A DNA stretch of 64,000 bases from Rhizaria sp. SCN 62-66. Taxonomy: Eukaryota. The position numbers and the translations under genes were made by a program. Location: the NCBI GenBank assembly GCA_001724265.1, contig MEDY01000042.1, positions 1 through 64,000 of the forward strand, read 5' to 3'. The notes below the pieces were generated by a model that saw only the letters and a list, made by a program, of their open reading frames with translations, had not been told where the DNA came from and searched no databases. Shown here in pieces: positions 22,318-49,947 of the stretch (position 1 is the stretch's first letter; each line of letters begins with the position of its first letter).

Positions 22318-23258
22318 TCATTGAGATGATTCCGGCGTCGTACTCGTACTTGCTAGCAGTGCCGCCGAAGAGCTCCTGCTCGCTGAAGATTCGTGCACAG
22401 TTGCGTCCGTGTTGACAGGGCTGTAGCCAGCGGCGGCGAAGAGGTCGCGCAGCAACGCGCGGTCAAGCGGGCAGCGGCACTGCAGCTCGTCAAGCACGTG
22501 CCTTAGCTCGGGCTCCGCGGGCTCCACGAAACCGACCGACATCGGCAGGTCCAGCAGCAGCTAGTATGCTGCGCCGCTGAGCGCAACGACGGACAGACAT
22601 TCCCCGAGGATGTGTTGGTGTGGCTCTTGCAAGCAGGGGATATTGTCTGCGTCGACCTGCGAATATATCGTGTTGGGCTTGGGCTCCCTCGGGTACACAG
22701 GCTTGGCGTCAGGCGCATAGAGATGAGCGGGCGTGCGTGCACGGGCCTCATAAGGGCGCGTCGCGGCCTGTAGGTGGCGCGGACCGTCAATGAAGAACAA
22801 CACAGCGTTTGCAACCTGCCACATCACAGTATCAGCGGCGCCTCCCTAACAAGGAAGGAGGCCAGCTTCCTCCTCCTCCTCCTTACCCTCAGGCGCAGCA
22901 GGCGTGGGCTTCTCACCCGATACCGGCTGTGCCTCGTCCGCCTCCTCGTAAAGCGCCGCGTTCTTGTCGTCAACAAAAAAAGCAAACGACTTCGAGTGCA
23001 TCGGTGTCGGACAACTGATTCACGCTGTCCACGGGCTCCTGCACCGGCAAGGCAAGACTGGGTAGGGTCGCGGCGCGCTGGCACAGCTTGGAGCCCCGCC
23101 TTGAGTCTGGGATGGCCAGCTCCAGCCTAAGCACGTCTCTTCAGCATCAGCACTCTTAGGCGCCACCATCCACGTGCGAGCGCCGCGCTGCATACCCTGT
23201 ATTTCGCCTTCACCATCTGTGCGTCACCGTGCCGAGCATCCTTGTTAACGTCGCCACT

Positions 23259-23290
<32 letters not shown>

Positions 23291-23435
23291 TGTTGTCGTT
23301 GTTGTTGCTGCTGCATCGACAACTGTAAGGTTTTTGTCGTTGTCATCGTCAGAGTCGCAGTCACGGTTCCTCGTAAGAATAAAGTTACTAACGACAGCCG
23401 AAGCAAGCGTGCGTTGAGCTGCAGCTGTTTGACAT
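22318..23435 (-). pseudogene. Degenerate or mis-assembled gene, unknown product
   Basis: GC-rich island. Protein-like frame 22980->22318 (FVDDKNAALYEEADEAQP...LDRALLRDLFAAAGY...) contains two TAGs. Upstream, the protein-like text changes frame several times (near the A7 run at 22975-22981, ~23138, ~23222, and in the GTC/GTT repeat ~23259-23316). Upstream boundary approximate. Confidence 0.45.
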
Positions 23436-24258: not shown

Positions 24259-27200
24259 ATGAGCACAATCGGAGGCAATTCAAGCGCGGTAACACCTGTA
24301 CAGACAGTCGCTAAGCTCCAGGTGCCACATGCAGCACCCATCCCACCTGTGGATGAGCAACGGCGCTTGATTGACGCGACGCTGACGACCGTGTCGTGGC
24401 CTCCCGCGCCGTACTCGCCGGTGCCCCTGCTTCCGCTCCGCTGGCTCGCGCGGCTCGGCGCCCACCTCGGCCTCCAGTGGCAGAGCGCGGACACGATCGG
24501 GATTGCGCTTGCGTTTCCGCCCACGCGCTCCGCGGCTTAGGTTAAGGCTGCGCAAGAGGCCGCTTGCGCACAGCTGACCGCCGTGAACAAAGCGCGCCGT
24601 GAGCTCAATCTCAAACCACTGACCCCTGTCTCCGTGCTGCCCGGCTCCGGCGCTGACGACTACGAGCCCGGTCCCGCGGACCCCGATGTGGACATGTTGT
24701 ATGAGGCTGCGTGGGGCGATGCGGGGCCTTCCGCGGCCGGCGCAGTCCTCTCGCCCGGTCCGATCGACTTCAACCATCTCTTTGCTGTCGCGGACCCCTC
24801 TGCGGCCGCGACTGATGGCGATCTGCTCGCACCGCACGTGCTATCGGGCTCGTTCCGCTTTTCTGCTGCCAGTGGTGTTACTGCACATGCCGATACTACT
24901 GCTCAGACTGCCGTTGGCTCTAACTCGCCAGGCGCGGCTTATGAGAGCAGCGAGGGTTTTGACGGCGAGAGTGTGAACGGCTCCACAAGCTCGCCCAGCG
25001 TCGCCAGTGTTGAGGGCGGACACCGCACCAGCAACAAAAGCATCAAGAACAGCAAGGAGACTGATTTCCCAAATCGCCGCACTGCTCACTCGCGCTCAGT
25101 GTCCGACGCACAGCCAGTAACCTCACGGCAACAACGCGGCGGCGCGTGCTTGAACACAGAGAGTGATCAGTAGACACACCAGTCGCATCAGCTTGCGACA
25201 CTCACGCTGGCTGCGCCCGCGTTCATTGCAATTGCGCCGCAAGATTCAGTTGTATCTCAGGAACATTTGTTGCCCGATGCAACGGTACGTTCGACACAAC
25301 GTGCTTCATTCGATTTTTCGTATATTCGACTCTTTCATATCGTTATTTCGGGGACTTGTCACACCATCTCATTTTGCTCATTTCTTTTCTACATGTACAA
25401 TTTCTATAGAAGTTCCCACTGTGCTGGCGCAAGCACCTGCCCGTGCCGCGCGGCCGCACTGCGCTGCTATACGGCTGCGTGGGTGTGCCAGCGCCGCTGT
25501 TCCACTTGCTCAGCGGCTGGTACGGACTCGCCTCGTGCCCCGCGCTTGCCTCCTCAGTGCCACTTGCCACGACGCGCATCGGCGGCGCACTCGCGCGCAC
25601 GATCACGCTCGACCACACAGCATTCGTGCCACTTGCAGTGCCCGCAGCACCCACTGGGGGACCCACGCCATTCTTGCTCACGCGCGTGGCGCCAGCGAAG
25701 TCAGCTTCGGATAAATCGACCAGTCACAACGGATTGCCTGGGAGCTTTCGCGAGGAAGACGAAGATCACCACGGGGGCGATGACTCTGACGTACACAAAC
25801 GCCGTCGTACCGAGAGTCACAGCGATGTATTGGACGCGGCGTATGGCGGTACTAACTACAACCATGGCTTTCGTCACAACGATGCGCGCTTGCCACGGCA
25901 GCAACCCGTTCCGTCTACAGCGCCGCTGGTGCTGCCGCGTCTGGGTCCCGCCGCGCTGGTCGCGCTCACGGTCACCAGCCGCCCACAGCCCGAGATGACT
26001 GCGGCGGGCCCTGAGTCTGTCCCTGTTAACAGAGACGTTAACGACGTGTACACTGCGGCCGCCGCGACGCCGATGCCGCTGGAGGCCTTCTTGCGTGGGG
26101 CCGCGCAGGCCGTGCGCTTTGTTGTGCCCGCCGCTGCGTTGCATACGCGGCCCGCCGTGTCCGCGACGCGCGCTGCCGTCAAGCAGGCCGCCAAGGCCGC
26201 CGCGCCCCCCGTGGCGTGCTGGCCGTACCGACGCGTCGAGAGCGACAATGACGAGGAAACTGACAGCGGTGACAGCAACGATCCAGACTTCGATCTCTCG
26301 AAGGAGCTTTCCGCGGATGCTGCACAAGCGGCGGCCGCGGCGGTGCTGACCGACATTCCAGTGCTCACGCCGCGCGCGCTCGCCAGTCTGTTCCGCGCGC
26401 ACTCCGCGCTGCTATCTGCTCTTGCCGCCGCGTGTGACCCCGACGAGGAGGGCCGGAGCAGGGCCAGCGACGCTACAGTCACTGCGAACACGGCTCCGCG
26501 CGTGCTCGCCGCACTGGCCGCTTCCGACGATGCTGCCCAGGACGTCAAACATCCCTGGATTGAATCCGTGATTGCGTACGCACGCGTTCTTGCCTCGGCG
26601 GGCGGCGCGGTGTCGCCCGCAGTCACCGCCGCTGCGGCCGCCACGACGCTTACCCGCGCCCGACGCAGCGCTGAGACGGACAAGACGGCCGCCGCTGTGG
26701 CCGCTGCGCTTGACGAAGCCGCGCACCCAGTCAAGGCGATTACCGTCTGCTGGTGCAGTGCTGTGCGCGGCGCCAATGCTGAGCGCACGCTGCCCGCGCT
26801 ATTGCGAGCACTGCCGCGGTCCTCTGAGGCATCCGCAGCGACGGATACAGTGCTCACACTTGGCAATAACAGGTTTGCGGTGCGCGTTCCGGTGACAGAG
26901 GGCGCGAACACAGGCACGCCCTTGGTGCCAGCGCTGCTGAACGCGACGCTGCGCGCCATTGGCACTGTGTCGGTCGCAATAGACGACGACACGCTCGTTA
27001 GCGATCGTGGCCAACTCACGCTTGTCGTGTCCACAGAGCAGGTCACCAGTTAGCCCTCGCGACTTTCAGCTTGTGATTTGTCTGCACTTTCGTGGCTGCG
27101 CGCACCTACTGTGGCCCCAGGCGCGAACACACATGCAACCTCGGACATCGTTGTTGAGGGCTCGAGCAATGTACACTTAACCTTGGATCGCGCTGTGGCC

Positions 27201-30200
27201 GAGCTTGCTCGCCGGCGCCGGTGTCTGCATCCGCTGCTGCAGGCGAACTTCTCACGACCATCATATCAGGAAGTTTAGTCGCAGGTGGCAAAGCTGCGCG
27301 GCGTGCGCGGGCTACGCAATATCGGCAACACGTGCTATATGAACTCCATTCTGCAAGGTCTTCTCAACTCCCCAGCACTCACCGCGGCGCTTGCACGACC
27401 CGGAGTCGCTGGCGCGTTCAATTACGTCAGTGCCATGGGCGCCAAGGGTGAGCTTGCAGTTGCGTGGAGCAAGCTTGCCACACGCATTTGGCGGGCACCC
27501 AAAGCCGACACTTCGCGCGACTCTCAGGCTGTCACGTCGAGTCCGCAGCTGGTTGATATTGCGCTGAGGTGGAATGACCTGATTGTGACTGGACGGAATG
27601 AAATCACAGCAGCTAAACGCATTGATAAGAATGACCGTGCTCGTGCTGAGCGGGCACATAACTTCCTGGAGCAACAAAAGGAGCAGCAGCAAGAGGGCGG
27701 CGCCGCTGCTGGAGCTGTTGCAGTGGCAGCATCGGACGTGGTTCAGCTATTGCTGCAGCCCCCTGTACCGAAGACCCACGAGCCCATCACGGCAGTGGCA
27801 CCCCTGGACGTTAAGACACAATTGGGTGACATTGCTGAACAATTTAAGGGCAGTCGTCAGCACGACTCGTCAGAGCTTCTGACGGTGCTGCTGGACGGGC
27901 TTCAGGAAGACACGAACGCCGTTGTGTCGAAGCCCTATACGTCAAGTAACGACGCTTTGCAGAAGGACGGACTCAAAGTGTTTGCACTGGCCGAGTGGCG
28001 TCGGCACCTGATGCGCATTAACTCCCCGCTTGTGCGCACTTTTTACGGCCAGACATGCTCAATGCTGCGCTGCCTTGTCTGCGGCTCCGAGTCACGGACA
28101 GTTGAACCTTTCTCGTCGCTCGTCGTCCCACTCCCATCGCCACGCGTGCGCCTTGTGCTCACAGTCGTGCGCACGCGCGACCTTCCCGCACACGGCGCTG
28201 CGGCGGCCTCGACAGCGTCTGCCGCGTGGTCGCGCCGGGTCAGTGAGCTGGTGCTGTTCGTGCCTTCGCAGCTCACCGTCGCTCACATCCGCGCTGCGAT
28301 TGCCGCCCGCAACAAGTCGCAAACCTCGGCGCCAACTGAGAGCGCCGAGTGGTTTACGCCCGCACTTGACATGAAGCGCTCCGTGTTTGGCTACACGCGC
28401 GTGCACAAGCGCCACAGTTACGGAGGCATGCACAGCGCGGGCCACTTTTCTTCACGGTCACCAGTCTATTCCTATTCCGGCGGCGCGCGCAGTCGCAATG
28501 GCAGTAGTTTTGACGATGACGACGAGGATGGGAGTCATAAGAAGGACGACAATGGCCCGTTGGCTAGCTATCCTTCCTCAAGCGCCCCCGTCAAGAGCAT
28601 ATCATCTGCCATCGGCGCTGGTGCTGGTGCCGGCATGCGTCGTGAGGTCGCGCTGGTTGGCGACGATGACACGCTGGATGCCGTGATCACAGGCTTAGGC
28701 GCTGGCGATGATGACAATGATATAGACGACGATGACACCGGCAGTACCATTGGGTGTGGCAGGACACAACGCACATGTCGCCTGACTTTGTGGGAGCTGG
28801 AACGCTCCCCACTTGTCGACGTCCTCTTCACGCCCTCCGCTACAGGTTCGCGCTCTATCGTGTTGCTGCCTCTCGATATCGCACTTCCTTCTATCATCCC
28901 GAGTGGCGGTGACTCCGGCGCGTACGCTAAGAGCGCTCACACCGTTGCCGATCTGGACGGTCACCGCTGGGCCGCGCGTGCTGTGCCGCCGCTGCTGGTC
29001 CCGCTGCCGACTGAGATCACGCCAGCTGAGCTTATTGGTGCAATGCAACCATTTGCGCTCAAGTCGCTTAACGCTGCGGACGCAACTGCTGCCGCAGCCG
29101 CCGCAGCTGCTGCGGCGCAACGCAAGCTTACTGTTGCCGACGCAGTGCCATCTTTCGATGCAGCTGCAGACTCTGCGGCGACGATGAACGCGCAGACAGC
29201 TTTGCTGGCAGAGCGCTTGCGCGTTGAAAAGGCGAAAAAGGAGGCGGCTGCCGCGCGTGAGGCGAAGGCCCTTAAGCGCGAGCGCAAGGCGCGCGCCGCG
29301 GTCGATGAAATCAAGACTGCTGCTGCGAAGGAGGACCAAGATGCAGCCGCGTTCGTGAGCGGCGTTATCTCAGTCGCCGACCGCCACTGCCTGGCCGGCC
29401 TACCTGAGCCTGTGATTGCGTTTGCCGCCGCACACGCGTTGCGCAACTTCTGCGTTTCACTCACTTCTGCTGTTCCCACGCCCGATGAGCCGGCTTTGCC
29501 ACCCTGGCTGGCGCCGGCGCTTGCTGCCGTGGCTCTGTCGCTGCCTGCTGGCGCATTGACCATGGGTGCCCCATCCAACACCACCGAAGATTGGGCCAAG
29601 GCGTCGAGTTGGGCCAAGGTGTCGAGTTGGCAGCACGCGACAACCGACATCCTCGAGCGTCTTTGCCGGCGGGACGGCAGCGGCTACGGCTGCGCGCTGC
29701 CTGTTCCCGCTGCAGCGATTAACACCACGATCACTGCAAGTGGTGACGCCGAGCATGATTCCGCTCCGCGTGTGCCGCAGGTGCAGGCGCCATACAGCGG
29801 CGTGCCGCTGGTGCGTTGCGTTGGCGACAGCGTGCGCGCGCGACTGGCACTGCCCGCGGCGACGCCTGAGGGCGTGCGTGCCGCGCCTGTCGTGTTGCTT
29901 GGTCCCACGCTGCACACCACGCTTAGGACTATCAGCTGGCCCGCCATTGACTCCGCCTCGGCCTCTGCTTCCGCGTCTCCGAAGCGAGATGTGCTTTCAA
30001 TGGTGGAGTTGTGCCGGGAAAAGCTCAAGCTTGAGCGCGATAAGGAGCTCGATCGGATCGAGCGCGAAGCTGAGACAGAGTATGACAAAAAAAAGCGAGA
30101 TGAGGACGAACAAGCAATCGCAACGCTTTCGGAGCTCAACAATGTGTCTGTGTCTGTGTCCGTGGCTCGTCCCAAGCTCAACAAGTCCGCGGTCGCGTTC

Positions 30201-32696
30201 ATGTTCGGCGGCGCCTCCAGGTACCAACCCTCCGCTTCTGTGTCGAACCCAAGCCCCGCTTGTTCTGGCGCAAGTGGGACGTGCTTCCCTGCGCCAGGGG
30301 CCCCGTCAGCTGGCGATTCGCCGGGACAGTCGTTTTCGAGTGGCAATGCGCCGCTGACGGTGCCCGAGCACAGCCTGGCGCTGCCAACAGGCGACATGTC
30401 ACTCGCAGTGGCCACGCGTGCCGCGAATCGGCTTCCGTGGGGGGCTGGGGATTTTGTCGCTTTGTCGGGTGCCGCTGCTACTGCTGCCGCGGCTGCGTCT
30501 ACTATGAACACAGTTGAGCATACGTCTCGTCCATCCGCGGATGAAAGCATCGACATGGGGCTGACAAGCAGTATGATCTTCCCAAATACCGACCGCGACG
30601 ACGATGACTCCAACGACAATGACAACTACTCCGATTGTTATGACTACGACCGCCACAACGAGAGCGATGAGAGGGACGATGATCACGTCGACAACGACGA
30701 GATCAATGTCAATGCTAACGCTATTTTGGCCGCTAAGAATGCGGCCCAGGCGTGGCGCGCACGGACAGCAGGCGAGATCGCCGCCGCGCTCTCCGCGCTG
30801 CTGCCCTCCGCCGCCGGCGCCGCTGCTGTCAGTGGCGTCGCCGACAGGGTCGAGGCGATCCTCGCACGCGCGCTCTCAGCAGCTCCGGGCACCGGCTTGA
30901 ACGCTGGCGCTGGCGCTGGCGCTGGCGCTGCTGGCTGCTGGGAGGATCCCGTTGCTGCACGCTTCGCTGCCTACACTGCGGCGAACACGGCTTCCCAGCC
31001 GTGCGATGCTGTTCCTACTGTTGCTTCTGACACTGTCTTTATTGGGTCTCAGCCTAGCGGGCTCACTGTGCCCACTGCGGCGAGTAGCGTTGCGGCGACT
31101 GAAGGCACACCAGTCGTCTCGCGTCAAACCTCCGTGGAGGTCAATCCGCAAGACGCGTTCCGATTGGCCGCCGACGCCGCGGTCGCCGCGAATGCGGAGT
31201 TCGAACAGCTGAGTGCGACAGCCGACTCTCTCGCCAAGACCGAGCAGGGTATGGCAGCGGTTGTCGCTGGGGCGGTTGCTGACTTAGCTGTAGTCGCACG
31301 CCGCCGCGCAGCAGCTGTTGCTGCGTTAGCCGCGGCAAAGCGCAAGTCAGACGATGCACAGCGAAAGAAAAAGGCTGCGGCTTCGGTGCTGGCGGGCCCT
31401 CTGGACCCCTCATGGCTTGTCGTCGGTGATACAGCCAGAACCGAAGCAAAGGCCGGCGCGGCGTTGTGTGGTGCATACGCTCTGGCGCGCGCCGCGCCGC
31501 TGATGTGTCCCACAGCGTTTTACGTAACTACTGGCGCCGCGGCCGCCGACTCCGACGCCGAAGCCGGTGGTGAGGCTGAGGGCCAGAGTGAAGGCCAGAA
31601 TCAAAGCAACAACGAACATACTGAGGGCGATGCAAGCTGCAACGGTGGTGACATTGCCGCTGTTCTTGAGCCGATGAGTTCTGACCAACTCAAGGATCTC
31701 GTGTCCAATAAGCGTGCATTCGCGGCGCTGCAGGGTCGGCCCATTCCCACTCAGTCTGCGCAGAACCCCCACAACGCCGGATTCGATCATGACGCTTACA
31801 GCGAGGCTCGTGAGGGCGTGAACCCCAGCCCCGCTGCTGAGGCGGCTGCTGCGATTGGCGCCAACGCGAGTGCGGAGGCTGCCGAGTGCACGTACGTGCT
31901 CCAGCGCGTCCACGCTCGTGTGGACAAGGCCTTGCCTGAAAACCACACTCTTGCACAGTGTCTCGCTGCCTTCGTGGCGCCCGAGCGGATGGTCGGCGAC
32001 AACCAGCCGCGCTGTCGCAAGTGCGCGGACTCGTGTCCGGCGATCAAGACGCTTACGGTCGTCCGCTTACCGCCCGTGCTGGCTGTCGTGCTGAAGCGCT
32101 TTGACCCCATCGACCGGACCAAGTGCAACACACCTGTGACGTATCCGCTGCAGCTCGACATGACGCCCTACTGCGACGCGTCGGCGGGCGCGGGGGTATC
32201 GTCTCCGCAAAACAGTCACGATGCTGACAACGACAACGCGATGTATGATCTCACAGGCGCGTCCCTGCACTCTGGTAGTGTGTCGGGCGGCCATTACACG
32301 GCCATCGGGCGCAATCCCCTGTCGGGGCAGTGGTTTGACTACAACGACAGCTCGGTGTGCGCACTCGACTGCGCGGACGAAGCCGCGCTGCAGCGACGAG
32401 ATGCGTACGTGCTGTTTTACCACCGCCGCGGAGCCTACCAGGCACTGCAGGCGCGCTGGGGGCTTGCACCCGCGGGCGTCAGGGTCGCCGACAGCGCAGA
32501 CGATGTCGCGAAGGTCTGGGGTGCAGACGAGGACGTCAACGGCGATGACGAGAGTGGTGAGAACGGCCTATTTGAAGATGCTGGGGCCAGCAATCCTGGT
32601 GATAATCCAGTTGAAGATATTGTTGAGTTTAATCTTGATGACCCAGTAGATGAGCCGAACGAGTTTAGCGAGACTGCGAGTAACGCCTTCCAGTGA
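24259..32696 (+). CDS. Ubiquitin-specific protease (peptidase C19), DUSP-containing USP4/11/15-like, ~2,770 aa, with four in-frame TAG codons
   Basis: Cys box GLRNIGNTCYMNS (Cys 27333-27335), RQHDSSELL, CLVC/CRKC zinc pairs, LPPVLAVVLKRF, His box GGHY (32292-32294), WFDYNDS, DAYVLFY. DUSP-like pieces PLLPLRWLARLG, SPGPIDFNHLF, VPAPLFHLLSGWYG. Exons 24259..25284 and 25410..32696 (intron GTACGT...TATAG, phase 0). Internal TAGs at 24538, 25171, 27051, 27276; terminal TGA. Confidence 0.8.
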
Positions 32697-33278: not shown

Positions 33279-36200
33279 ATGGCCGACCGCAACCAGGCAA
33301 AGCCTACCTCGCCTTCCGCAGCGCCGGCGGTCGATGCGCCAACCACTGCGGCTCCCGCGGGTAGGCATATTCCCGTTCCATCGTATCTGCCAACAGCTCC
33401 GCAGTCCGGACGCGCGGCCCCCACGTCGCCTTCCTACGTTGGACCACGCTCGCTGCAGCACCCGGCGACTGTCTCACGCCCGGGGCCAGTGTCTGTGGCG
33501 TCGCTGCTTCCGTCCTCGATGCTTGGCCCCGCGCAGCCTCCCTACGGGCACGCACAGCCTTCGTCGTGGCAGCTCTCTACCGCCTCCATCCCCGTCTCTG
33601 TTTCCGCCGTGGCGTCTTCCGCGGCGCAGGCCACAACAGGGCCGTACCACCCGCCCTTATACACCGCGCAGACGGGCGCACATGGACCGAGTTTTGCCCC
33701 AACCACACCAAGCTACACTATGAACTTCGCGAATAGCAGCAGTACGCACACAGGCAGCAATGCGTACAACAATGTCAGCAGCAGCAGTGTCGCACAGCCC
33801 GCGACAGTTGCGACGTATACCGGCTACGGCCCAGCGTACACAGTGCCTTTGTACCACTCTGCAGCCGGCGCAGGCGCCGCGTATGTCTCAACTGCCGCCG
33901 CCGCAGCGTCGTCATCGTCATCGTCGTCTGCGATGTATGCCGCGGGCGCTGCTGCCAATGCGTCACACACAGTGCCGGGACCGGGCTCTCTGCAGCTATC
34001 AGTAAATGCGCCACCCGCGTTGCCCTATGCACCCGCGGGAGGTTCATTCTTTGGCGCATCGAACCCAAGCAGCAGCCACAACTCGAACTCTGTTGCCAAT
34101 GCTGGCAGCTCTAGCGGTGCGGTGGGCATGTCGTCGCATCCAACAGGACCGTCATTTTCATTTCATTCCTCTGCGCCTGCTGTCTCCGGTGGCGCTGCAT
34201 TGGGGAGTGCTAATCAAGGCTCGTTCAATGCGAACTCATCGTACACCGGCGCTGCGTACAATCACGCTGCAGCGTACGGTGGCACTGGCGCAGGATACAC
34301 TGGAGCGCACACGCCTGGATTCGCGAGCCAACCACAGTATCACTACCCATATCAATATCAACCGTCTCAGCAGCAACAGCAGCAGCAGTATCAACAATAC
34401 CAGCAGTATCAACAGTATCAACATCAGCATCAGATACAGCAAGGTGGAGTGCAACCATTATCATCCCCCTTCACATCTTCTGCATCGTTTGCACCCCAAT
34501 CTCCTTACGTTCCCACAGCGACTGGCCCCAGCAGTCCTGTATTTACATTCTCCGCGCAACCCGCAACCGCTTTCGTGCAGTCTTTTTCTCACACCGCACA
34601 ATCGCCGTCGCAGCCCTTTCTGTTCCCTGCGCCAGCCTTTCTCGCCAGTCTGCGGCGCGGCCCGCCCGCGGCGCTTGCGTTGCCTTCTGAGGCCGCCGTC
34701 GCGCAGTGCGGCCTCTTTGTCCGCGCATGTCGCGCGCACATGCGGTCGCTGGTGAGCGCGCGCGCGCTGGACCCTTATCCACGACTCCCGCTTCACTTGC
34801 GCACCGCCGCGCTTGCCAGTGGTCGTGTGACTGCTGCGCGTGACTCAGCGCAACACACGCTGCCTGCACACGCACATTGGCCGATGATCTCGGCGTCGGA
34901 CGCATGCACTGTGATGGAAACGAAAGACGCAGCTGGGAAGCGTCATGAGTCTAATACGGCGTCGGTGTTAGCGGATGATGCCCAGTTCACGCTGTCTGCT
35001 GCGATGTCGGAGCTATCATCGATGTTTTCCCGCGCAACAGCCTCACGCATGCAGACTGCCGTACTTCAGGCCACTGAGACTGCATTTGCCTCTGCTTCAT
35101 CTGCGGTTAACACGACGCTCAGTTCGAGTGCGCCGCAGTGGCCCGCGAAAGGCGCCGCGCCGCCACGGGCACTGACGACTGCGCTGTCGATTGTATGCAC
35201 GTTGATGGCTCTGTCTGAGTCTTTCACCGAGTCACAGTCCGAATGCATCGCGACCGTGCCCCGCGTCATGACGCAAAGAGCTTTACTGCACCAGAGCAGC
35301 GGCCACAGCAATGATGCCGAGAAACCACGCAACGATGCGGTGGCAACCGCAGCAATTTACGTTCATGCCTTCCGTGGACTGTCCGCACTTCCGCCGCGCG
35401 CATTGCCGCGACCGGCGCGTTTTCCTTCTCTTTCCGACCCCGACGTAGACGGAGACAACTCTGTGACTGAGCTCGAAGGCGACACCGAATCCGCGACGGA
35501 CACCGCTGGCGGCGACACCCGCAGGCTGCCGGCGCTGCCTGCTCCACGCACGACGGGTGTTGATGGCGACTGCACAGACAATGAGGCTGACTTCAGCTCG
35601 ATTGGCGGAGTGTCGGCTGCGCGCACTATTGGTGCAACGCGGCGCCAACGCAATAGACGCGACGAGGCTGACGATACTATGGGCAAGGAGGATGAATTAT
35701 TGAAGCATGAGGAACCGCTTGAGGCTGATGAGCCAAGTGTTTACACGCTGCCGCCGCCGCTGCCGCCCCGCGGCTACCATCCTGCCGCGCTCGCCGCCTC
35801 GCTGCTGGCCGACGCGCGCTCTTAGCTGCCCCAGCTCTCCGAGTCGCCCAGCGCGGTCCGCTTTGGCTGCTTTGCGCCGGCGGTGCGCGACTCGACGCTG
35901 CGGCTTGTGCGCGCGGACCCCGCGGTGCTGGCGCTGGGTTGCGACGGCGCGCTCCCACCCTCGTCGCTCGCAACGCTGCTCTCGCGCCGCGGCGGGCTCT
36001 CGCGCGCCGCGGTGGCTGAGCTCGTGCGCTCCGGCGCGCTGACGCTGCCAGAGCTTGAGGCGCTTGACGCGCGCCGTACCGCACGCCGCGATGAGCGCCG
36101 CGCCGCGCGCTACGAGCGCCACGCTGCTCGACGCGCTGCAAAAGCAGAACCCGCTGCGAGTGCTAGTGCGAGTGCGAGTGCTGACGAGAGCAAGGTCGAT

Positions 36201-39200
36201 GTGGGAGCTGCTGTCGCACGCGAGAGGGCCCGCGAGAGCGCAGATGCCGCTGTGGTGGCTGAAGCCGCTGCTGTGGCGATGCGTGAGAGCGATCCCATGG
36301 CTGTTTTAGGCCGTGGTATGGCTCTTATCGCGATCACAGCCGCTTTACCGCGTCTGCGTGCACGGGCGCAACAGCTTCACTCGAACGCAGAGTCCGTTGA
36401 GAAGAACTCAGGCGAGAGTGTGACTGCAAGCAACTCTACCCCGAGCACGGGAGTCGTTCCGGAGGCGAAGCACCGTGACGCGAGCGTCAGCGCAGCTGAA
36501 ACCGTAACGACAGACTCGAATGCCGCACTTAGTGTGGAACAAGCCCGTGCAATGTTTTCTGCAGTGCTCCATCGTATGGTATCCCCGTCCCCGCCAATGT
36601 CATTGCCATTTGCACCGGCGACAGCAACTCAGCTTACGACCAGTGCGAAGGTTGGCGTGGCGACCTGGGCAGCAGCGGCACGCTTCCTACCTCTGGGCCC
36701 TCTCTCCCTCCACCGGCCGCCAGTATCTCCATTGCTTGCTGCTGATGCGTTGTTGCGGCGTTCTCGCGCAATCGCGATGCTGGGCCCCGGTACTGTTGTG
36801 CGGGGCATTGTAGTCGCGATCGAGCCCATCAAGGAAGTCAAGCCGCGTGCGAGCAAAGACACTGCTGCCACAACTGCGGCAACGACGGAAGTGAAGAGCG
36901 CCACATCAACTGATGTCAAGGCTGCATCTGACGCCGCCAAAGACGCTGCCGCCGCCGCCGCTGCCGCTGCTGCAGCTGCTGCTGCGGCGCCCGCGACGAA
37001 GGGGAAGAGCAAGGCAAATACTGCGGCGGCCCGCAAGCGCGCTGCTGCAGCAGAGGCCGCCGCGGCCGCCGCTGCCACGGCCGCCGCCGCTGCCGCCACT
37101 ACGGCTGCAGCCGCCGCCCCCGCAGCGACGGAGCCAGCCGCTGCCCCGCGCCCCGCGCCGCGATGCCGAGTGCGGCTGCTGCTGGTGAAGGCGTACCCCA
37201 CGCCCGCTGCGCTGCACGCGATGGGTCCTCTGGCCGCCGCGGCCGCCGACGCCGCGTCAGCGCCGGTGCCCGGACTGGAGCAGTGGGCACTGGCGTCGAC
37301 ACCCTTTGCATCAGGCACGATTCGCGCTCCGTTTGGCCCCATGTACCCCATGCACCCGATTCCGACCACTTCGCAGCCGCAGGACGCCATGGCGCGCGGC
37401 GGCGCGAGCGCGGAGGACTGCCCGCCCGCGCTCACTGCTTCCAGCGCGAGTGCGGCGGCGAGCGCCGCCACTGTCGCGCCGCCCCGGCGCGCGGGCTGGC
37501 CGACCGCGGCGGGCGCGGCGGCCGCGGCTTGCGCGCTGCAGAGGCTGGCCATGGGCTCGGCGGCCGCGGCGACAGCGGCGCTCAACGACTACACACCCAA
37601 ACACGCGCTCTCGGCTGCGGCCACGGCGGCGGCGTTTGCGGCATCGCGGGCGGCGACAGCGGCAGCTCGCGCTGCTGCAGCCGCGGACTGCCAGCTTTGG
37701 GGCATTGCTTTGCGAGACACGCGCAAACTAGCATCTTCTGTGAGTAAAATCGAGATTGCAGCAGCCCCTGCAGCGACTGCGCGGGCCGTCACTGCAACAT
37801 TGCCAGTGTGGTCTGTGTCTGTCGCAGCACAAGGTGGCCTTTGCGAACTCCTTGATGCTGAGACTTCATTACTGCCGCGAGATCCTCTGTACTTGCCGAT
37901 GCCTGCGCTTCCAGAGAGCTTGACGACTGACGCTGTGGCTCCTGCTGAGTTCTTACCCACTGAGTTGTTACCACAATCATCCGTGTCTAGTCGAGGCGCA
38001 GCAACGCTGCTTGTGCTTCCATGCTCACTTCCTCGTTTCACACTCGCAGACCCCACCGTGACCGTGCTTCCACCGCCACTATCAACATTCTCGTCACCGC
38101 GCGCCCTTGCGCTGCACGCCGCGCGCCCCGCCGTGTTTTGGCGCGCTGGCTGGTGGTTTGTTGAACGCGGTGCGCGCGCACATACCAGCGCACTCTCCGG
38201 TAGCGCGCTTTACAGCAGCGACGCTGCTTCAAGTGCGTCCCCATTTTGCGCCGAAACAGAACTTGCAGCGATGCTCGATGCAGCCGCGGCACCCACAACC
38301 GATGACCTTGCTTACTGGGGTGTGTTTCCGCTCTCTTCAGGACATGCAGCTGCAGCGGTCAATTCTCTCACAAGTCTCTCTCCCTCTGCTTCAGGCTTAC
38401 ACAATACTGGACAAGCACCAGCGAATGCCAGCAGCGACACTGGTAGGTTGAAGCGTGAGTTCGGCCGCCCTCCTGGTCACGCTTGGCGCGATGTCCCGGG
38501 CCTGACTGCAGGCGCAGGTGCCGCCGCGAGCGCTGCCGCTGCGGCCGCGTGGTGCGCCGCGTTCGACGGCGTCCACGAGCTGGGAATTGAAGTCACCTTC
38601 GACATCACGGCTGCACCGGAGCCTGTGGCACCGGTATCGCTTGCAGTTGACGCCGCAGGCGAGAACGACACCAACGCTGGCGGAGTTAAGTCACCCCGTG
38701 GTGGAAGGCGCGCGGGATCGCCGGCCAAGCGCCAGGCGTCGCCCGCTTCGGCCTCTGCGACTGCGACGCCGCAGGCAACACCCACTGGGGGCGTGGCTGG
38801 CGGCAGGAAGAAGCGTGCGAACAACTCAGCGGCCGTCGCTAACGCGGCTGTTTCTGCGGCCGCTGCCGTCGCTGACACTGAAGCCGCTGACGGCACGATA
38901 CCTGTTGACAATGCACCGGATCCAAGCGATGATGCGTGCGCTGCGCCTCTGTGGGACAGCACCGCCGTATCACAGCCCTTGCGTGTGCGCATGCCCAGTG
39001 GTGGAGTGTTGACTGTGGGGTGCCAGGCTAAGGCGCTCGTTGTCGCCACTGATACGCTCACTGGTATTGTCGCCGCCACCGTGGCCAGCGAAAGCCTGGT
39101 TTGGCTCGGAGCCCGCCACAAGCTTGGGCAATACCCCCAAGCGCGCCTTGCTTCGTTAACAGCGCAGCGCGGCGCGGCGAGTACGATGGGTGACAAAGAC

Positions 39201-42200
39201 CCCAGCGAGAACGCTTCTCTTGCGCCAGCGCCTGTGCCTGTGGTCGTGGTAACGCCTGCTCGTGGCTGCGGACAGCAGGAACAGCCCACGACTGCGGAGT
39301 ATCCCGCCCCGGCATCCCCGCCCGCTTTGGCCACAGATTCGCCTTCGTCGCCGCCACAGGTGCCGCAGTGGCTGCCTCGCTGGGCCGCAGCGCGCTACAC
39401 GGCAGTGTTTGCTCTGTGCCGCGCCGTTGTTGACGCGGAGGTTCGCGCACTTCTGCGTTCCGGCACGCTGACTGAGACGACGTTTCTTTGCTGTGGTGGG
39501 GACTGCTGCCAGCGGCATGAGAACGAGGTTCTCGCCGCGATCGCCAATGAAAACGCGCTTTCATCATCAAACAAGCAGCTTCCACAGTCTTTGCTCCCCG
39601 GCTTTGCCCCGGCTGCCGCTCTGAACGCGGCCACGAGCGCCGCAGTCGTCACTGACGCCGCTGGCAGGCCTGCGCTCTCGTCATTGCCAGTTCTCCCGCG
39701 CGCCCACGCGTTTCCCCCACCCCCCGTCCAGTCTCCTCCGCCGTTAGACTCCACTGAGGCCCAGACCGCGCTGGCCGCGCTGCTGCCCGATAGCCGCGCT
39801 GCGCTGCGGCTATCGAAGCTTTGGAAGCTGCTCGCTCCGACTCATGCTCCTGCTCCTGCTGTAGTGTCTGCCGCACCTGCTTCATCGAGTGCCGCGGAGG
39901 CACTGAACGCACAAGCAAAGCCTCCCGCAGATACGCCGCTTGCGCGCGTGCTGCCGACTGCGACTGTCACTCCGAACGCAAACGCCTGCACAGTGTCGGC
40001 GTGTACCGGTGGCTGCGGTGGCTGCACAGGTCATGTTGCAGTTCCACAGTCAATCTTGACTAAGATGCGCGCTGCGGCTGCGAATGTGGTTGCACTGGAG
40101 CTGGCTGCGGTTGTTCAATACTCACATCTTTCCACGGTTTCAACAACAGTTACGACGGGACTGCTTGCGTCCGCCGTCACGCTTGCCCTTTCCGCACCTG
40201 CAACTGCACTTGCAACAGCAACTTGCGCCGAGACACGTAACCACGCGAGTGTAGGAACCACGAACGAACACGCGAGTGCGAGTGCTAATGCTACTGCGAG
40301 CGCAATGACTGTGAGGAGTGCTTCGACACAAATTGTGCCAGCATTGTGCACAGCACCACGCGTGTCGCTGCATGTTGGTGCCGGACTGGCGCTGCCGGTG
40401 GCCGCATGCACGGGCGAGCTCTACAACGTCACGTCGCTTGCAGGGGCTGCACTTGGGTTTGAACCCCCACGCACTCTGCAGCAACAACAACAGCAGCATC
40501 AGTTGCTACAGGCGCACGCGTTCCACAGCTCGCGAATGCCAGTCGGCAGCGTGACCGCAACGTCGCCGTTCTACAGCGGTCCATCAATGCGTACTTCGAC
40601 CGCAGCCGCTGAGGTTGCGCAGTCCCCACATGGCCCCGTCGCGAATCGCGGTTACGGCGCGAGCGCCGCCGCCCAGAGCTCGATGTCGTTGTCGATGATC
40701 GGCACTGTTCCCGTCACCGCTGCGACGGCTGCGTCGCCGTTTTACCTCCCCCCCGCGCCGTACCCGACCGTTGGCAACACGAACAACGGCCCTAACGCAG
40801 GTGGCGCTGGCAGTAGCAGCTCGTGGCGCGGACCGGGCGGCACGCCTGCTGCCACGATGCGCTCGACTATCCCAATGCCGTCCCCACACTCGCAAATGAC
40901 AACGCTGCTAACGGGAGGTGTGCCAACGATGCCGCTGGTCCCGGCCGCGCGCGTGAGTCTTGCATTGCCACCCGCTGCGCTGTTAGCGCGCGTGCGCGCG
41001 AGCGTGTTTTTCCGGAATCTCGACGGCGTTGCACTTCTCACCGAGGCTGCAGGCGCCACGCCGTACGCATCGCTGTTAGACGCGCCGTTCTTGTTTTTTG
41101 GCCCGCAAGAGTCGTTTAACGCCTTGCGCACCGCGCAGTTTTCGTCGTGGGCTTTGGTGTCGTTCTTCAAGGGACTGACGAACATCGCACTTGCTGTGGC
41201 ACAGCTTGTCAACACAGCAAGCACCGCTGGTAACGAGGCTGTGACTGTAAACACTGTGACTTCAGCCGTCACCTCGTTCAATCACGCACGCGAGTCCGAG
41301 CCGGAATTCTTGGCAGCAAAGCTGGGCCAACTCGCGGCAACAGTGCTACCTGCTGTGCACCTGTTTGCTGCCGCGCCCGCCGGTGGCATTCAGGCCACCG
41401 ACAACGCAGCCGCTTCCACTGCCAATTCTGCGAACCGCGATGGCGGCGACGTCGCTGCGCCCGTGACAGCAGCTACCGAGCCGCCAGCGTCAGGTGCTGT
41501 TGCAGCGACTGCTGCAGCGACAAAAGCACTCAACCAGATGTTCGACCACTTTGCGTCTGCACTTGCGCCATCAGCGACGCCTGTGCTGCCCCCGGCACAG
41601 GTCCGCCGCGCACAACGCTGGCTTTCACTTGCACGCCGGCTTTTGCGCATTGCACCGTGCGCATCCGAGCCCGCTTCGCTTTACGCGACAGAGATGAACG
41701 ACGAGGTGATCAGTGCTGAAGCAGATGCGTGCGCTGTCGTTGCCGCTCTTGTGCCGGATCTAGCCCAATGTGCTGCGACGTCTTCGACCGCGGCGGCGTG
41801 TCCCGCTCCATCCACCGTTGTGCCGACTCTGGCACCACTGCCACTGCCGCTGCAGTCAAGCGTGCTCCACGGATTGCTTCCCCCACTCACGTCATCGACG
41901 GCCACGCTTCCGTCACTTGCGCCTCTCGCGTCCATTCCGTTGCCAGGATCAGCCCCTGTCTCTATCACGACACAGGCGTCTGCGACTGTTACAGCGCATG
42001 CCGAGCAGCGCGCACGCTTGGCGACACACTCAAGGCTGGCTGTCGGCGCAACTCCGACCACAGGCCCTATTGCGACGCGAATGCAGCGCTTATCATCATT
42101 GACGCGGTCAATTCAAATGGAAGACCGTCTCATCACTGCGGCGCGTGCGAGTTCAGGCTCAGGGCTTCCGCCCGCAGCTGCCAGCTCTACTAACGCACCT

Positions 42201-45200
42201 GCGGGCGCAGGGACCGCAGTCGCAGGGTCGCACGCGTCCACGTCCGCTGCTGGCAAGGCGGCTGCTGCCCGAGCGGACGGCTCAGCTCCGGCGGGCCGCA
42301 GCGGGGCGACTGCGACTCTCGCCGCAACCACTTCAGGCGCCCGTGCTGCTGCCGCCTCCGCCGCCGCCGCTGCTGGTTCTGTGGGAGCGGATGGCGTCAA
42401 GCTGCAGTCTCGTGACGGCGCTGGCGCGGTGTCAAGCGGAGGCTTCCATCCTCCCCCGCTGCGGACCTCTGCCGCCGCTGCAGCAGCCGCTGCAGCGCCA
42501 GGCACTAGCGCGCAGGGCCTTGGCCCGTGGCCGCACGCGAACGGCGCCGCTGGAGCCCCACTCTCAACTGGCGCGGCCGCAGCGAACGCGCTGAGCTTTG
42601 CGGCCGCGCACGCGCGTACGACACAGGTCGCCGGCGCGGGCGCACGTGGCGTGAGTGCAGGCGGCACTCTTAGCGCGGCTAATGACAGCTTGACGCGTGG
42701 GTTTGGCGCGATTGACAGTGACTTGCACCGATGGCTGAACCCTTCTCCGATCCCCGCAGTGACTTTGGCGACGCTGCTGCCCGACCCGACGCTCGCGCCA
42801 CCGGGCGCCGTCCACGGGGGCCGTTCGTTACTGCCGCAGTCAAGCTCATTCGTGCAAATCCCAGGTGCGCACGCACAAACTGCAGCAGGAATGCAGCAAC
42901 AGCTGCCTCACCAGCAGACATTTCTCGGCTACCAGCAGCAAACTGTTCCCGTCGCGACGACAACGACAGCTGGATTTTTCGGTCCTGCAGTCGCTGTGCC
43001 GACCGAGCCCAAGTCGCCGTTGCTCCGGCTGCTGTCGCCGCGTCTCCCGGGACATGAGTCGCCCACGTCGCTGCCGCCGCTGGACTCGCCGCGCCGCAAC
43101 CGCGGGCGCGACAACGGCGACGACAACGGCGACGACGGGCTGTTGCCGATGGATGACGCGCCTGGAGCGTTCTCGCCGCTGATCGGACCGCAGCTCGCCG
43201 GAGCCAATGCGAGTCCGATCGCGCCCGGTAGCAGCGGCGGCGCGGGCGGGCCGGCGCGCACTGTGGCCGTGCCGCCCCCGCTGGAGCTGCCCACGCTGTC
43301 GCAACGCAGAGCCACCGCAGGTCCCGGCTTCTCTGCGGCGGCGGCATCGGGCCCTGCGCGGGCGGGCGAGTCAGCTGCAGAGCGTGCGAGCGCGACTGCG
43401 TTCGACGGTGTTGATCGTCAGGTGCAGGCGGGTGGATTGGCTCTCATGCGGAACGCAGCTGAATCAGCCGCTGCAGCTACGGCTTATGCGACTAGCTCGC
43501 GTGGGCTCAAACGTGGTCTAGACCAGCAAAATGCAACATCTGTGGTTGCTAATAGTAGCATTGAGACATCCGAGCACATTCAACAGCACCAAAAACGTCC
43601 GCGTGCTGCCAACGAAGTTTCCCCGACTGGCGGCGTTCCATTTGAACTTCCCGCGATTGTAGTTAATACCACCGCTGATGCGGCATCTGTTGCCGTGACT
43701 GAAGATACTGGTCCCCGCGCTGTGCGGTTTGCGGACACCGTTGTGACTGTGGCCCCTCGGCCGCGCTACCCCGATCTTGACTCGCCGCTTCCCGTGCGCG
43801 ACACACAGGGTGACGCGGCCACGGTTTCACGCTCTGAACCCGCTGCATCACCAACCCCTGTGGCCGCGCTTGCGTTTTCTGACAGCACCCGTGACGACGG
43901 GTTCGCCATTCGAGAGGCTCCTACCGGAGCATGTCACAGTCGGTCACACAGCCGTACTTCTATCATCGGCTTTGCCTGCAACGACAGTGTTGCTGCGGGC
44001 GATACACGAGAGCAGGCTCCTGTGTCTCATGAGCAGACTGCTGCGATCCGCCTTTCTGCAGCTACGACTGGTTCAGATAACACGGCTGGGAGTCCGGCTG
44101 CGGGCAACGGTGTTAATACGCTTACGACGCGCACTGTGGACGACACGTTTATCCCGCTCATCGGTCCGCGTCGCACAGCGTCCATGGTATCTGTTCCTGT
44201 CTCCGGTGCCGATAAGGGCGGTGCATGCGGTGGCACTAGCGGTGTCCATGATGACGACGACGACGATGATGACGATGACGATGACGCAAACACTGCTGCG
44301 GCGTTGCCACCGCGAAGCCCGCGCGTTGTTCGTGAAAGAGGCGTTTTGGCGTCAGCTTCAAGAACATCGGCTCTTGATTTAGATGCAGTGTCAGCGTTGA
44401 TGCCACGCCCTGTCTCTGCAGCACTGCTTGCTGCCACACAGAGTGACCACCACCTCTCACACTCACAAGGAGAGAGTTGTGACAATGATGACGACGGTGC
44501 AAGCATGCGGTTTCCTCCATCACAGGGGGTGTCGCGCGCACAATCACGTGCATCTTCGCGCCACGGCACGCATGCGAATGTCGGAAATGAAGATGAGACG
44601 GGGTATGACGGAGATTCGGTGACAGCTGTTGCCCTTGACATTGATTCAGCGCAAAAACGAGCAGCAACGCGTGCGGCGCGTGGATCGCACGCGCCGAGCA
44701 ACATATCGCGACTTAGCTTTGATACTGGCGCCGCGATCTTGGCTTCTGAGTGCTCTCAGTCTCCTGATGGGCGCTCGAGGCAGCAGTTACCTGTACACTC
44801 TCTTCCGATCCCCCATGTGTTGCCGGCTTCACAGGCTCAATCACGCGCGCAGTCGCGTGTTCAGTCGCGGGCAGAGTCACCAGCTGCGCGCACAGTGACG
44901 ATCGCGAGTGGTGCAGCTGTCCCCGCTGCAGTGTCAATGTCTGGTGGTGTTGTGCGCGCGTCTCCGCCCGCATCTCAGCCGCTCTCGCGCTCTCATTCGC
45001 GGACTCACTCGCGCTCGCAGTCCGCAGTGTGGTCGATTGCGGCGGCGCTCGACGTTAACGACGATGACGATGATACCAAGAGCAGCGTCGGGAACAAAAG
45101 GGTTCAGCGGCCCATGCGCGACAGCGATGACGGCATTAAACTGGAGTACTCGCGCAACACCAACACTGATTGTGTCGCTGCCGCTACCACTGATGCAATC

Positions 45201-48200
45201 GTCCCAATGGGAGATAGTCACACAGACTTAGACGGAGCATGCAGGAGTGGCGATGCCCCCCGCATTGTTCATGCTCATGCTGCCGTGCCATCGGCAAAAC
45301 TTGAGGGCACGTCCAATTCAGCTGGTGCTGCTGCTCAAACGTCGACTATCCCTGCAACGGCGTCCGCCTCTGAAGCAGCAGATGTGGTCGATGAGAGGGC
45401 CTTTGAAGGCGACCCAGCTCTTGATGCCACTGCGAGCGCGACTGACGCTGCTGCTGCAGCTGCCACCGCTGCAGTTGCTGCTGCTGAAGCTGCTGCTGCC
45501 GCTGCTGACGCTGCGATCACCGAGAACAACCTCCTTTTCCCACTAGACCCAGTGTCACCGCAACTGTACTCCCCCATCGACGAGGGCGACGACGGGGATC
45601 TCGGCTTTGCCGCGCACCGCGCTAGGGACAGATCCGACGACTCTGGTGGCGGCAGCGGTAGCGGCGGCGACGGCAACGGCACTTTCGTGTTTCCCTACAA
45701 TTTGCACCACCACCACGGCAGCCAGCAACCGCAGCAGCACCAACCGATGTACGGCGGGATCCATGCGCTGCACTATGACAGCAGCGGCTCGCGAAGCGGA
45801 CTGGGCACGCGCAGCGGCAGCGGCGCTGGCGCCGGGCTAGGCGCGGTTCCAGGCACCTTAACGCACGCTGCTTTGCACGCCAAAAGCGGCGGTCGTGATG
45901 AGAGCGGCAGCGGCCGGGACTCGATTCCGCTTCCCCGTGCTGACTCTGCCACAGGTACTGCTGTGACACATCGCACTCTGCTCCCTTCTTCCGCTGCTGC
46001 TGCCGCCGTGGCAGCAGGTGTGGCTGCAACTGCGGTCGGCGGGGGCCCGTCTGTCACCGGTACGGCGGGTGACAGCGCGACAGCTGCCGCGGCCGCCGCG
46101 GAGGCACAGGCGCAGCAGCAGCGTCGCGCCGCCGCGGTCGCCCGTCGCCAGGCGAGTTCGCGCTCTCCGTGCGTGCTGTTTGACAGCGCGGACGTCGCGG
46201 CAATGCACGCCGACCGCGCGGCGCTGTACGCAGACCGCGCCGGCGCCACTGCGCAATTCCTTCGCGGCCCCGCAGTCGAGCGGCTGAGCGACGGTCAAAC
46301 CGCCACGGAGACTGGAAGCAGCGGTGCCGCGCAGGGCGGCGCTGCAGCTGCAGATGGCTCTGGTGGTGGTGTGGCGCGCCAAGGTCGCTACGGACCGTAC
46401 TCGCTTGCGAGCGCGTTGCCCGACTTGTCGCTGATGGGCGCGAGCGACGTGACGCGCACACTGGAGAGCATGCGTGTCGGCGTGCACCAACAACCGCATT
46501 TGCAATCTCACGTTCACCCACAATCTCAGACCAGTCAACTTGTTGCACCTTTGCCAGTGCCGCTGACAAGCTCTGCTGCAACTGCGTTATCGGCTCCGCT
46601 TCCGTTGCCGCTGCCGGTACCACTAACAGCCTCAACTTCTTCGCTTGCAGCGCAGTCACTGCCTGCCCCGTTACCAGTGCCGTTGATGGCCTCCATCCGC
46701 ACAGCAGCGGCGCCTCAACAACAGATGCATAAGCCGCAGCAAGAGCAGCAGCCTCCAGCGCAAGTCCCATTCACTTCTCTCGCACTGAACAACCGCTTCT
46801 CGTTCGAAAGCTCCGGTGACAGCGACGGTGCGCGGCTCACAGACGCATCTACTGCTGTTGCCGCGTTGGTCACCGAGGTCGGCTCAGAGAGGACAGCCGC
46901 TCCACCGGCTCTGTTGGCGATGACTGACACTGATGGCATCAATGCAGCGGCTAGAAGCAGTCCGGGTGCAGCAGCTGCTGCCATTATTGCTGCTGGAGAT
47001 CAAAACGTTAACATGCAGCACCAAAGCAATCGTCGCACGGTCGACGACGTCGGTGTTGCGAATGATGCGGACTCTGCTGCAGGCGACAACGATTCCCTTG
47101 CACCTCTCGGTTTCGACGGCAGCCGCGAGACGTCACACGGCGACGACGATGACGACGATGACAACGGCGGACACGGCTTTGCTGGTGATTTCGCGCAGCT
47201 TCGGTATGCGCAGAACCAGCCACATGGACAACATGGCTCCTTTGGCCTCCGCCGATCGTTCACAAACAGGCCTCCTGCCCCGCCAACGCTTGATTCGTCA
47301 CCGCCGCTGACCAACGCAGTCGCACCAGCGGTAGTGCCGCCGCCAGTGGGCGGAGCGGCGACTGACGTGACTCGTGCAAACGCCGCCGGTGAACACGGGT
47401 CGCAGACGGGTGTGAGTTCGCAGACTGCACCCCTTATTGCTTCGCACCTGGTGCGCCGCGGCACTGGCAACAGCACAGGTGCTTCTAACGCGAACAACGG
47501 CGGGCATAGCAAGGTCCCTCCAATCGTACCGACTTTTAGTCCTACTTTGCCCGGCCGCCGCATTGTTGCCGCCGTGTCCTCAGCGTCGCAGGCATCAATC
47601 CCAAGCGGTCCGCTTTCGCTGAGTACCAGCGCCCTTAATATGACTGTTTCCGCACGTGATATGAACCAATCTGCTGCCGAAACTGCTAATGCTAGCGGTG
47701 ACAGCAGCGGTAACGGCAGCACGCCTGTTGACGGTAATGGTGAGCTTCCTTGGCCACCGCTGTCGTTCGAATGGTCGCGCGAGGGCAGCGGAGACAGTAT
47801 GCGTGCAATGCCAGACTCTGAAGCACGCGCTCGGTTGTTACCACTGCTTGACCTGTCCGCAATGCCAGAGCCAGCGACTGTGGTGATGAGCAACGGGGAT
47901 ACAACCGCAAACAATGCGAACGACATTGCGACGGTAGGCCATGTTGCGGCGCTTGCAGACGGAGTTGGGACGACGCACACCGTTGCTAGCACTGCGCCGA
48001 CTGCGTCAAACACGACACTCACTGCCCCTGTTGGCGCTGGGACGTTGTCTGCGATGGTCGGAAGCGAGACACCGGCCGTGTCGACAGTATTGGCTCCGGG
48101 ACTGAGCGCCCTCATGTCGTTAATGCGCGACAGCACTGCGACTGCTCTGGCAACAAACAATAGCAACGCAAACCACACGGTCACACCGACCGTCAACACG

Positions 48201-48308
48201 AACACTGTGTCGACACAGGCGAGCAACACTGCGGGTGACGCTGCTGCCAGCGCTCATGCTGCCGTTGACGATCCTCATCCGACGTCATCTCAGGAGACCC
48301 ACAAGTAA
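33279..48308 (+). CDS. TTC14-like (S1 domain + TPR) protein expanded to ~5,009 aa, one in-frame TAG
   Basis: ORFs 33279..35825 and 35883..48308 share a frame, separated only by TAG 35823-35825. Blocks resembling my recollection of TTC14 occur in order: PPVSPLL..RR..LGPGTVVRGIVVAI (~36714-36822), GVHELGIEVTFDI (~38568), LTVGCQAKALVVATD..SESL..KLG (~39009-39135), FFRNLDGVALL..SL..ALRTAQFSSWAL..FKG (~41007-41174), AVTSFNHARESEPEF. Ends TAA. Family call is from memory, not a search. Confidence 0.6.
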
Positions 48309-49875: not shown

Positions 49876-49947
49876 TTTTGATTTCTTAGACGGGTATAAC
49901 CTCGCTAATACGCAGAATCAATCAAAACTCAGGCTGCTCAAGAACGG

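Follow-up and report, generated by a model that had tools for sequence, protein, structure and literature searches.

A gene for a ubiquitin-specific protease (USP) on the 64,000-nt stretch of contig MEDY01000042.1 analyzed here (the window) carries four in-frame TAG codons upstream of its catalytic cysteine codon, and three more TAGs lie within two other genes of the window. These TAGs are real DNA, stand in frame between coding-like flanks, and are the only stop codon that interrupts genes; we infer that they are translated. The reading that we favor, with a probability of about one half, is that this organism would decode UAG, as a codon of low frequency, and that the USP would be made full length.

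The model of the USP gene runs from ATG 24259 through a canonical intron and then in one frame to TGA 32694-32696 (2,770 codons). Its in-frame stops are four TAGs (24538, 25171, 27051, and 27276), with 0 TAA and 0 TGA. The features of the gene are the following.

24259..25284, plus strand: USP exon 1 (342 codons), starting with the open frame's first ATG; coding score best in frame; contains TAG1 and TAG2
24538..24540, plus strand: TAG1, codon 94, GCT TAG GTT
25171..25173, plus strand: TAG2, codon 305, CAG TAG ACA; the same in a contig of sequencing run X3
25285..25409, plus strand: USP intron GTACGT..TATAG, 125 nt, GC 0.37, shifts the frame
25410..32696, plus strand: USP exon 2, ends with TGA; contains TAG3, TAG4, and the UCH catalytic domain (PF00443, E = 3.2e-51), which is split
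27051..27053, plus strand: TAG3, codon 890, AGT TAG CCC
27276..27278, plus strand: TAG4, codon 965, GTT TAG TCG, 18 codons upstream of the catalytic Cys
27333..27335, plus strand: catalytic Cys codon in NIGNTCYMNS
32292..32348, plus strand: His box GGHYTA (His 32292) and YNDSSV (Asp 32346)

An earlier note on this DNA had given coordinates for the TAGs, the intron, the motifs, and the catalytic residues, every one of which is correct, and had held that the reading frame carries on unchanged across each TAG, which the frames of exons 1 and 2 bear out. It had also placed the first ATG after TAG4 (27339) downstream of the Cys codon (27333), with the catalytic triad intact, and this is confirmed; in-frame ATG is absent from TAG3 up to 27339. 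Since no in-frame ATG precedes the catalytic Cys, restart at an ATG cannot rescue the enzyme, and on the evidence within the window the USP contains its catalytic Cys only if all four TAGs are passed. The note's proposal that four UAGs must be read through to join a DUSP domain to the Cys thus holds in one part, as the Cys is reached only past all TAGs and splicing is unlikely; the link to a DUSP domain found no profile match. The public protein found for this USP comprises no more than the 536 residues from one stop to another, and standard gene callers truncate the proteins of this organism at TAG.

The TAGs of the USP gene are not sequencing errors, since a public record of 6,118 nt (L001) equals positions 22808-28925 of the window with 0 mismatches, all four TAGs included, and the contig of run X3, which comes from a different study and covers 25106-25264 including TAG2, shows no difference from the window. 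This recurrence in a second record, the intact triad, and the improbability of splicing, treated below, support decoding of UAG. Near-identical sequence is contained in activated-sludge and wastewater runs, and scans for related DNA returned the identical contig only, or nothing. Four sequencing runs (X1-X4) were compared with positions 23500-36500, uncovered parts being uninformative. Contigs of the poly(A) RNA run X1 lie at 25866-26276, at 26468-26891, and further downstream only. Run X4 covers intergenic DNA and the USP intron in unspliced form and therefore behaves as DNA; X2 and X3 could be DNA runs as well. Contig joints and loose ends near 34.4 kb and 35.75 kb stem from low-complexity repeats.

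The occurrence of in-frame TAG is wider than the USP gene, since three more TAGs are found in two other genes.

33279..48308, plus strand: gene of 5,009 codons with no detectable relatives, ends TAA TGA; one in-frame TAG
35823..35825, plus strand: TAG5, codon 849 of this gene, TCT TAG CTG; both flanks look coding, with no AT-rich spacer or ATG nearby
22318..23001, minus strand (ATG 23001, TGA 22318): gene of 227 codons with no detectable relatives; TAGs at 22848-22846 and 22563-22561

Over the 17,618 codons modelled (15 gene-model rows, grouped by count into 11 genes), in-frame stops amounted to seven TAG, 0 TAA, and 0 TGA, distributed over three of the 11 genes, a disparity that supports UAG decoding. 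The nine gene ends argue in the same direction, all being TAA (seven) or TGA (two) and none TAG; they are dominated by TAA despite the GC-rich third codon position. Two marks of a variant code are therefore found in the window: UAG in frame within the coding sequence of several genes, with the other stops excluded, and, weakly, UAG not acting as terminator (0 of nine gene ends). A TAG-TAA at 54970 that looked like a gene end was not accepted as one, being inside the intron 54963-55162 (donor GTACGC). An embedded-stop test on both strands gave 11 TGA matches, all antisense, and was confounded by the open antisense frames of GC-rich genes; explicit gene-model counts took its place.

Two regularities in the placement of the TAGs were also seen. 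A T precedes five of the seven (T3 frequency 0.20; post hoc P = 0.005), and in the two long genes all five TAGs stand within the first 35% of the open reading frame (ORF), far from the 3' end. Either the bias toward a preceding T or the early placement could be a mutational or decoding-context signal.

Between its ATG and the Cys box, the USP gene has a stretch of 986 codons with 0 TAA and 0 TGA. Position-specific base frequencies predict 6.1 of these two stops (P = 0.002), and off-frame triplets predict 16.4 (P = 7.5e-8); the four TAGs of the stretch compare with an unconstrained expectation of 3.8 to 9.2. That the stretch excludes TAA and TGA while holding four TAGs is in favor of UAG being decoded. 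Coding character was assessed with GC by codon position and with a log-odds score for codon usage, other genes of the window serving as the training set. The reading frame scores best in every segment between TAGs, and the score and the GC periodicity continue in frame across each TAG, which again supports decoding. Scores of the USP N-terminus (0.18-0.26) are the same as those of live genes, and the 227-codon gene, with 0 TAA or TGA, has a score of 0.244 and GC values of 0.67/0.48/0.69 by codon position. As far as sequence statistics show, the N-terminal region of the USP is coding. An exhaustive phmmer search with the product of 25410-27341 retrieved only the window's own protein, no paralogues of the TAG flanks were found within the window, and no signal of a readthrough-stimulating RNA structure was obtained 3' of the TAGs (z-scores between -0.87 and +1.17).

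The catalytic domain of the USP is recognized by the UCH profile of Pfam (PF00443) in two stretches (E = 3.2e-51; 174.8 bits vs. a curated cut-off of 23.9), so that the UCH part of the check proposed in the earlier note came out well above the threshold. Its first part had the best matches with USP4 (E = 3.3e-30), USP15 (5.4e-29), and USP11 (7.9e-28). Among solved USP chains, NTCYMNS aligned with NTCFMNS of USP4, and GGHYTA and NDSSV aligned with USP2; Cys box, His box, and Asp are thus all present and aligned to solved members of the USP family. The domain is divided by about 1,500 low-complexity residues. The distance from Cys box to His box is ~1,650 codons, the sequence between the conserved blocks being low-complexity and rich in Ala and Ser. 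A look-alike search of the ESM Atlas with the USP C-terminus gave generic USP clusters only.

Upstream of this domain, DUSP-like motifs occur at the positions where they had been placed previously: PLLPLRWLARLG (24424-24459), SPGPIDFNHLF (24751-24783), and VGVPAPLFHLLSGWYG (25479-25526). The PGPID and W-YG motifs follow the expected order, but the spacings between successive motifs are ~100 and ~210 residues, not tens. The proposed profile check failed to recover a DUSP domain, as PF06337 gave 0 matches on eight separate pieces (two searched at E<=1 and six at E<=10); these pieces were unjoined, and TAG1, TAG2, the intron, and long inserts all break up the putative domain. The phmmer search against PDB for DUSP chains yielded chance matches only (caspase-8, E = 0.6) or none, and the AlphaFold model of the residues of 25410-26009 had a mean pLDDT of 46 and was unusable. 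USP4, USP11, and USP15 are deubiquitinases with an N-terminal DUSP-UBL region. The USP of the window resembles them in its catalytic domain, which matches theirs best, and in having PGPID and W-YG upstream in order; it differs from them in that no DUSP or UBL was found by Pfam or PDB sequence search, in the wider spacing of the motifs, and in its split catalytic domain. A DUSP domain in the N-terminal region is unconfirmed; the motifs and the USP4/USP15/USP11-like catalytic domain suggest it.

If UAG is decoded, it would not reliably terminate translation, and ribosomes would add a residue on reaching an in-frame UAG. The decoder would be either a dedicated tRNA with a CUA anticodon, or efficient near-cognate decoding combined with weakened recognition by the release factor, with TAA and TGA staying terminators. 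UAG would be a rare codon (~4 per 10,000) that is allowed chiefly in sequences which evolve fast and lack detectable relatives, and the full-length USP (~2,770 residues) would lead from the N-terminal region to the Cys box, through a long low-complexity insert, and on to the His box. Natural UAG suppression and most reassignments yield Gln, and Gln is our guess for the amino acid inserted. The unevenness of the TAGs among genes is also compatible with UAG decoding because, in the available parts of the reports, organisms with published variant codes likewise vary strongly between genes (PMC5304391, PMC6394959).

Several results weigh against decoding of UAG. The codon is missing from ~12,800 codons of the other genes, and the conserved genes of the window (PCNA, carrier, and USP core) carry 0 TAG. 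Its frequency lies far below that of UAG-sense lineages in the published data available, e.g., 384 in 71 genes (PMC5304391). TAGs are clustered, with four in the 986 N-terminal codons of the USP (Poisson P = 7e-4) and two in the small gene, which has 227 codons (P = 0.004); this counts against a uniform sense codon because such a codon would not cluster by gene. The segment between TAG3 and TAG4 gave the weakest coding score (-0.03), below the 1st percentile of coding windows and above the 95th of off-frame ones. No homologue was found at any TAG, the TAG5 region and the 227-codon gene having 0 matches in protein collections. The search for tRNA genes in the window gave none, and in 23500-36500 no RNA contig bridges a TAG, the USP intron being likewise unbridged by X1. 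The finding of 0 TAG among nine terminators is weak (P = 0.08-0.13 under ordinary usage). Finally, TAG is the commonest nonsense product in this codon usage (share 0.61-0.64), and seven TAGs out of seven stops have a P of only 0.03-0.04 if they arose as lesions.

UAG-only changes of the nuclear code are known from few lineages, among them the rhizarian exLh (UAG = Leu), Iotanema spirale (UAG = Gln), and the phyllopharyngean ciliates (UAG = Leu) (PMC5304391, PMC11687900). As far as these accounts go, the window resembles them in having in-frame UAG in several genes, UAA as the dominant terminator, and a density that differs between groups of genes. In those organisms, however, UAG is described as frequent (384 in 71 genes), with conserved Leu or Gln positions and, in some of them, CUA-anticodon tRNAs, whereas here it amounts to ~4 per 10,000 codons and is confined to sequence without detectable relatives. 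Ambiguous codes have been described in Condylostoma, in Parduczia and karyorelict ciliates, in Blastocrithidia nonstop, and in Amoebophrya sp. ex Karlodinium veneficum (PMC4967479, 10.1101/2022.04.12.488043, PMC12153298, PMC6394959). According to the portions of these sources at hand, they share with the window a stop codon read as sense inside ORFs and an extreme variation from gene to gene, the dynein genes of Amoebophrya containing from 0 to 157 reassigned stop codons each (PMC6394959); the presence of the five TAGs of the long genes in the first 35% of the ORF is a further likeness. The organisms described there are AT-rich ciliates, trypanosomatids, and syndineans with two or three stops affected, in contrast with a GC-rich genome, UAG alone, and TAG at 0 of nine gene ends here.

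A bolder and rather doubtful version of UAG decoding is that the window would represent an early, ambiguous stage of UAG reassignment in a previously unsampled eukaryotic lineage, with readthrough far from the 3' end, counter-selection of UAG in most genes, and no use of it as terminator. If true, this GC-rich genome would hold a natural example of an "ambiguous intermediate". The route from stop to sense codon is debated between codon-capture and ambiguous-intermediate models, in the available text of PMC11687900. With its rare and uneven in-frame UAG, its TAA-dominated gene ends, and, within the window, a lack of UAG terminators, this organism would serve well as a test case; it recurs in wastewater data sets.

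The strongest rival to UAG decoding, although an unlikely one, is that UAG is an ordinary stop and that the TAGs are nonsense lesions, either in a recently inactivated USP N-terminus and small gene or in a USP that is as a whole a young pseudogene. The share of TAG among nonsense products given above is in agreement with it, as is the clustering of TAGs by gene, expected for lesions in dead genes; the T before five of the seven TAGs would fit C-to-T changes of CAG at TpC, and a frameshift-like break near 10395 shows that broken frames exist in this assembly. Seven nonsense changes without a TAA or TGA are nevertheless improbable under lesions, at the P value of 0.03-0.04 already mentioned. Decaying genes gain frameshifting indels at least as quickly as nonsense changes, and the three TAG-bearing genes contain 0 frameshifts. 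The 1,785 codons past the Cys box are intact, and by simple arithmetic the probability that all four TAGs of the USP fall in the first 35% is 0.015. In addition, the N-terminus has codon-usage scores like those of live genes, the identical sequence is present in two further data sets, and a truncated USP could not be restored as an enzyme by restart, no ATG lying upstream of the Cys.

Less probable still is A-to-I editing as in filamentous ascomycetes, possibly stage-specific, by which UAG would become UIG and be read as UGG (Trp). In the accessible parts of PMC11156358 the mechanism is UAG-specific, as UAA would become UGA and still be a stop, and U is preferred before the edited A; editing would therefore account for TAG being the sole interrupting stop (PMC11156358), and it would also account for the clustering of TAGs by gene. 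In Fusarium graminearum, 71 genes are reported in the sources available to need this correction, namely PUK1, in which two UAGs stand in tandem, and another 70 (PMC11156358, PMC4817773). The window is similar to these ascomycetes in presenting otherwise intact genes with at least one in-frame UAG and no other stop (PMC11156358, PMC10776026, PMC4817773); the system described there belongs to the fungal sexual stage and prefers hairpin loops, whereas the host here is no recognizable ascomycete. Restorative editing is known so far solely from filamentous ascomycetes, and the best taxon-labelled match of the PCNA of the window is from an oomycete (53%). The preference for hairpin loops was not seen either, with three of seven TAGs in a predicted loop vs. 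47% of 93 out-of-frame TAG controls, and TAG2 has the genomic A in the contig of X3, though this run may be DNA. That UAG-to-UGG restorative editing occurs outside fungi would be a bold reading.

The last alternative, removal of the TAGs by splicing of cryptic in-frame introns (25117-25409, 27042-27278 or 27042-27284, and similar GT..AG pairs), is very improbable when set against the real introns of the window, eight of which were defined from frame breaks beside conserved or clearly coding exons.

25285-25409, plus strand: intron, USP gene
49541-49833, minus strand: intron of 293 nt, PCNA gene
51603-51765, minus strand: intron of 163 nt, carrier-like gene
54963-55162, plus strand: intron with GTACGC donor, coiled-coil gene
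56085-56197, plus strand: intron within the span of the coiled-coil gene
56660-56786, plus strand: intron within the span of the coiled-coil gene
59493-59593, minus strand: intron
60736-60853, plus strand: intron

All eight donors read GTAYG (GTACGT in four, GTATGT in one, GTACGC in one, and GTACGA in two). The introns measure 101-293 nt, have a GC content of 0.27-0.50 and 13-18 pyrimidines in the 20 positions before the AG, and 0 of eight is a multiple of 3 in length; the genome is intron-poor with very strict 5' splice sites. GT..AG pairs in phase do occur around the TAGs. TAG1, TAG4, TAG5, and TAG6 resemble YTTAG acceptors, and TAG is the 3' end of three of the eight real introns; within the N-terminus, 27054-27275 and 25117-25284 have the lowest coding scores; and a TTCTCAC motif ~24 nt upstream of TAG4 has similar motifs, read by eye, near the 3' ends of real introns. 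The candidate donors, however, are GTAACC, GTCACC, GTTTAC, and GTATCG, so that 0 of the five candidates listed (four distinct donors) has a GTAYG donor; the GC content of the candidates is 0.48-0.76; and the one labelled B has just 9-10 pyrimidines of 20 before its AG vs. at least 13 in real introns. An intron that removes one TAG alone must be a multiple of 3 because the frame is equal on both sides, and the candidates are all multiples of 3, unlike any real intron, except 25117-25409 (293 nt), which shares the acceptor and phase of the real intron. The candidate segments lack in-frame TAA and TGA, though off-frame TGA is 3.5 times commoner than TAG, and each still scores best in the reading frame. 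For TAG1 there is no intron candidate at all, and with phases checked by hand no GTAYG or GCAYG motif in a workable phase for TAG removal was found in the region. The doubt expressed earlier about the 25117 and 27042 donors as splice sites was thus well placed, both breaking the intron rules, and it is unlikely that the TAGs are spliced out.

The window as a whole is a eukaryotic, GC-rich contig (0.48-0.75) with AT-rich intergenic spacers, and it contains very long ORFs without a Pfam domain next to conserved genes for the USP, PCNA, and a mitochondrial carrier. A Pfam scan of 14 other ORFs of the window gave 0 families, and an Rfam scan of the window 0 matches. The other genes delimited are the following.

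48794-49917, minus strand: PCNA gene, with the 293-nt intron after codon 15
50499-52356, minus strand: mitochondrial-carrier-like gene, its carrier identity read from the sequence by eye
53800-57449, plus strand: coiled-coil gene of four exons, true stop TAA at 57447

The closest PCNA is a metagenome protein on a 21-kb contig, with 85% identity, so that a related species exists; the oomycete protein at 53% is the best match with a taxon label. In the carrier-like gene, the 163-nt intron links the carrier-like exon to an N-terminal exon of ~175 codons without a recognized domain. The ORFs 2483-10444 (2,653 codons) and 10102-21516 (3,804 codons) overlap, and the coding potential changes frame near 10395, immediately past a run of six 15-base repeats (PAAAE). 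Around this frame switch (10300-10450) there is neither an AT-rich spacer nor a GTAYG donor, and the two ORFs are probably a single gene of ~6,300 codons that is interrupted by a frameshift, by an error of assembly, or by a -1 shift of the programmed kind.

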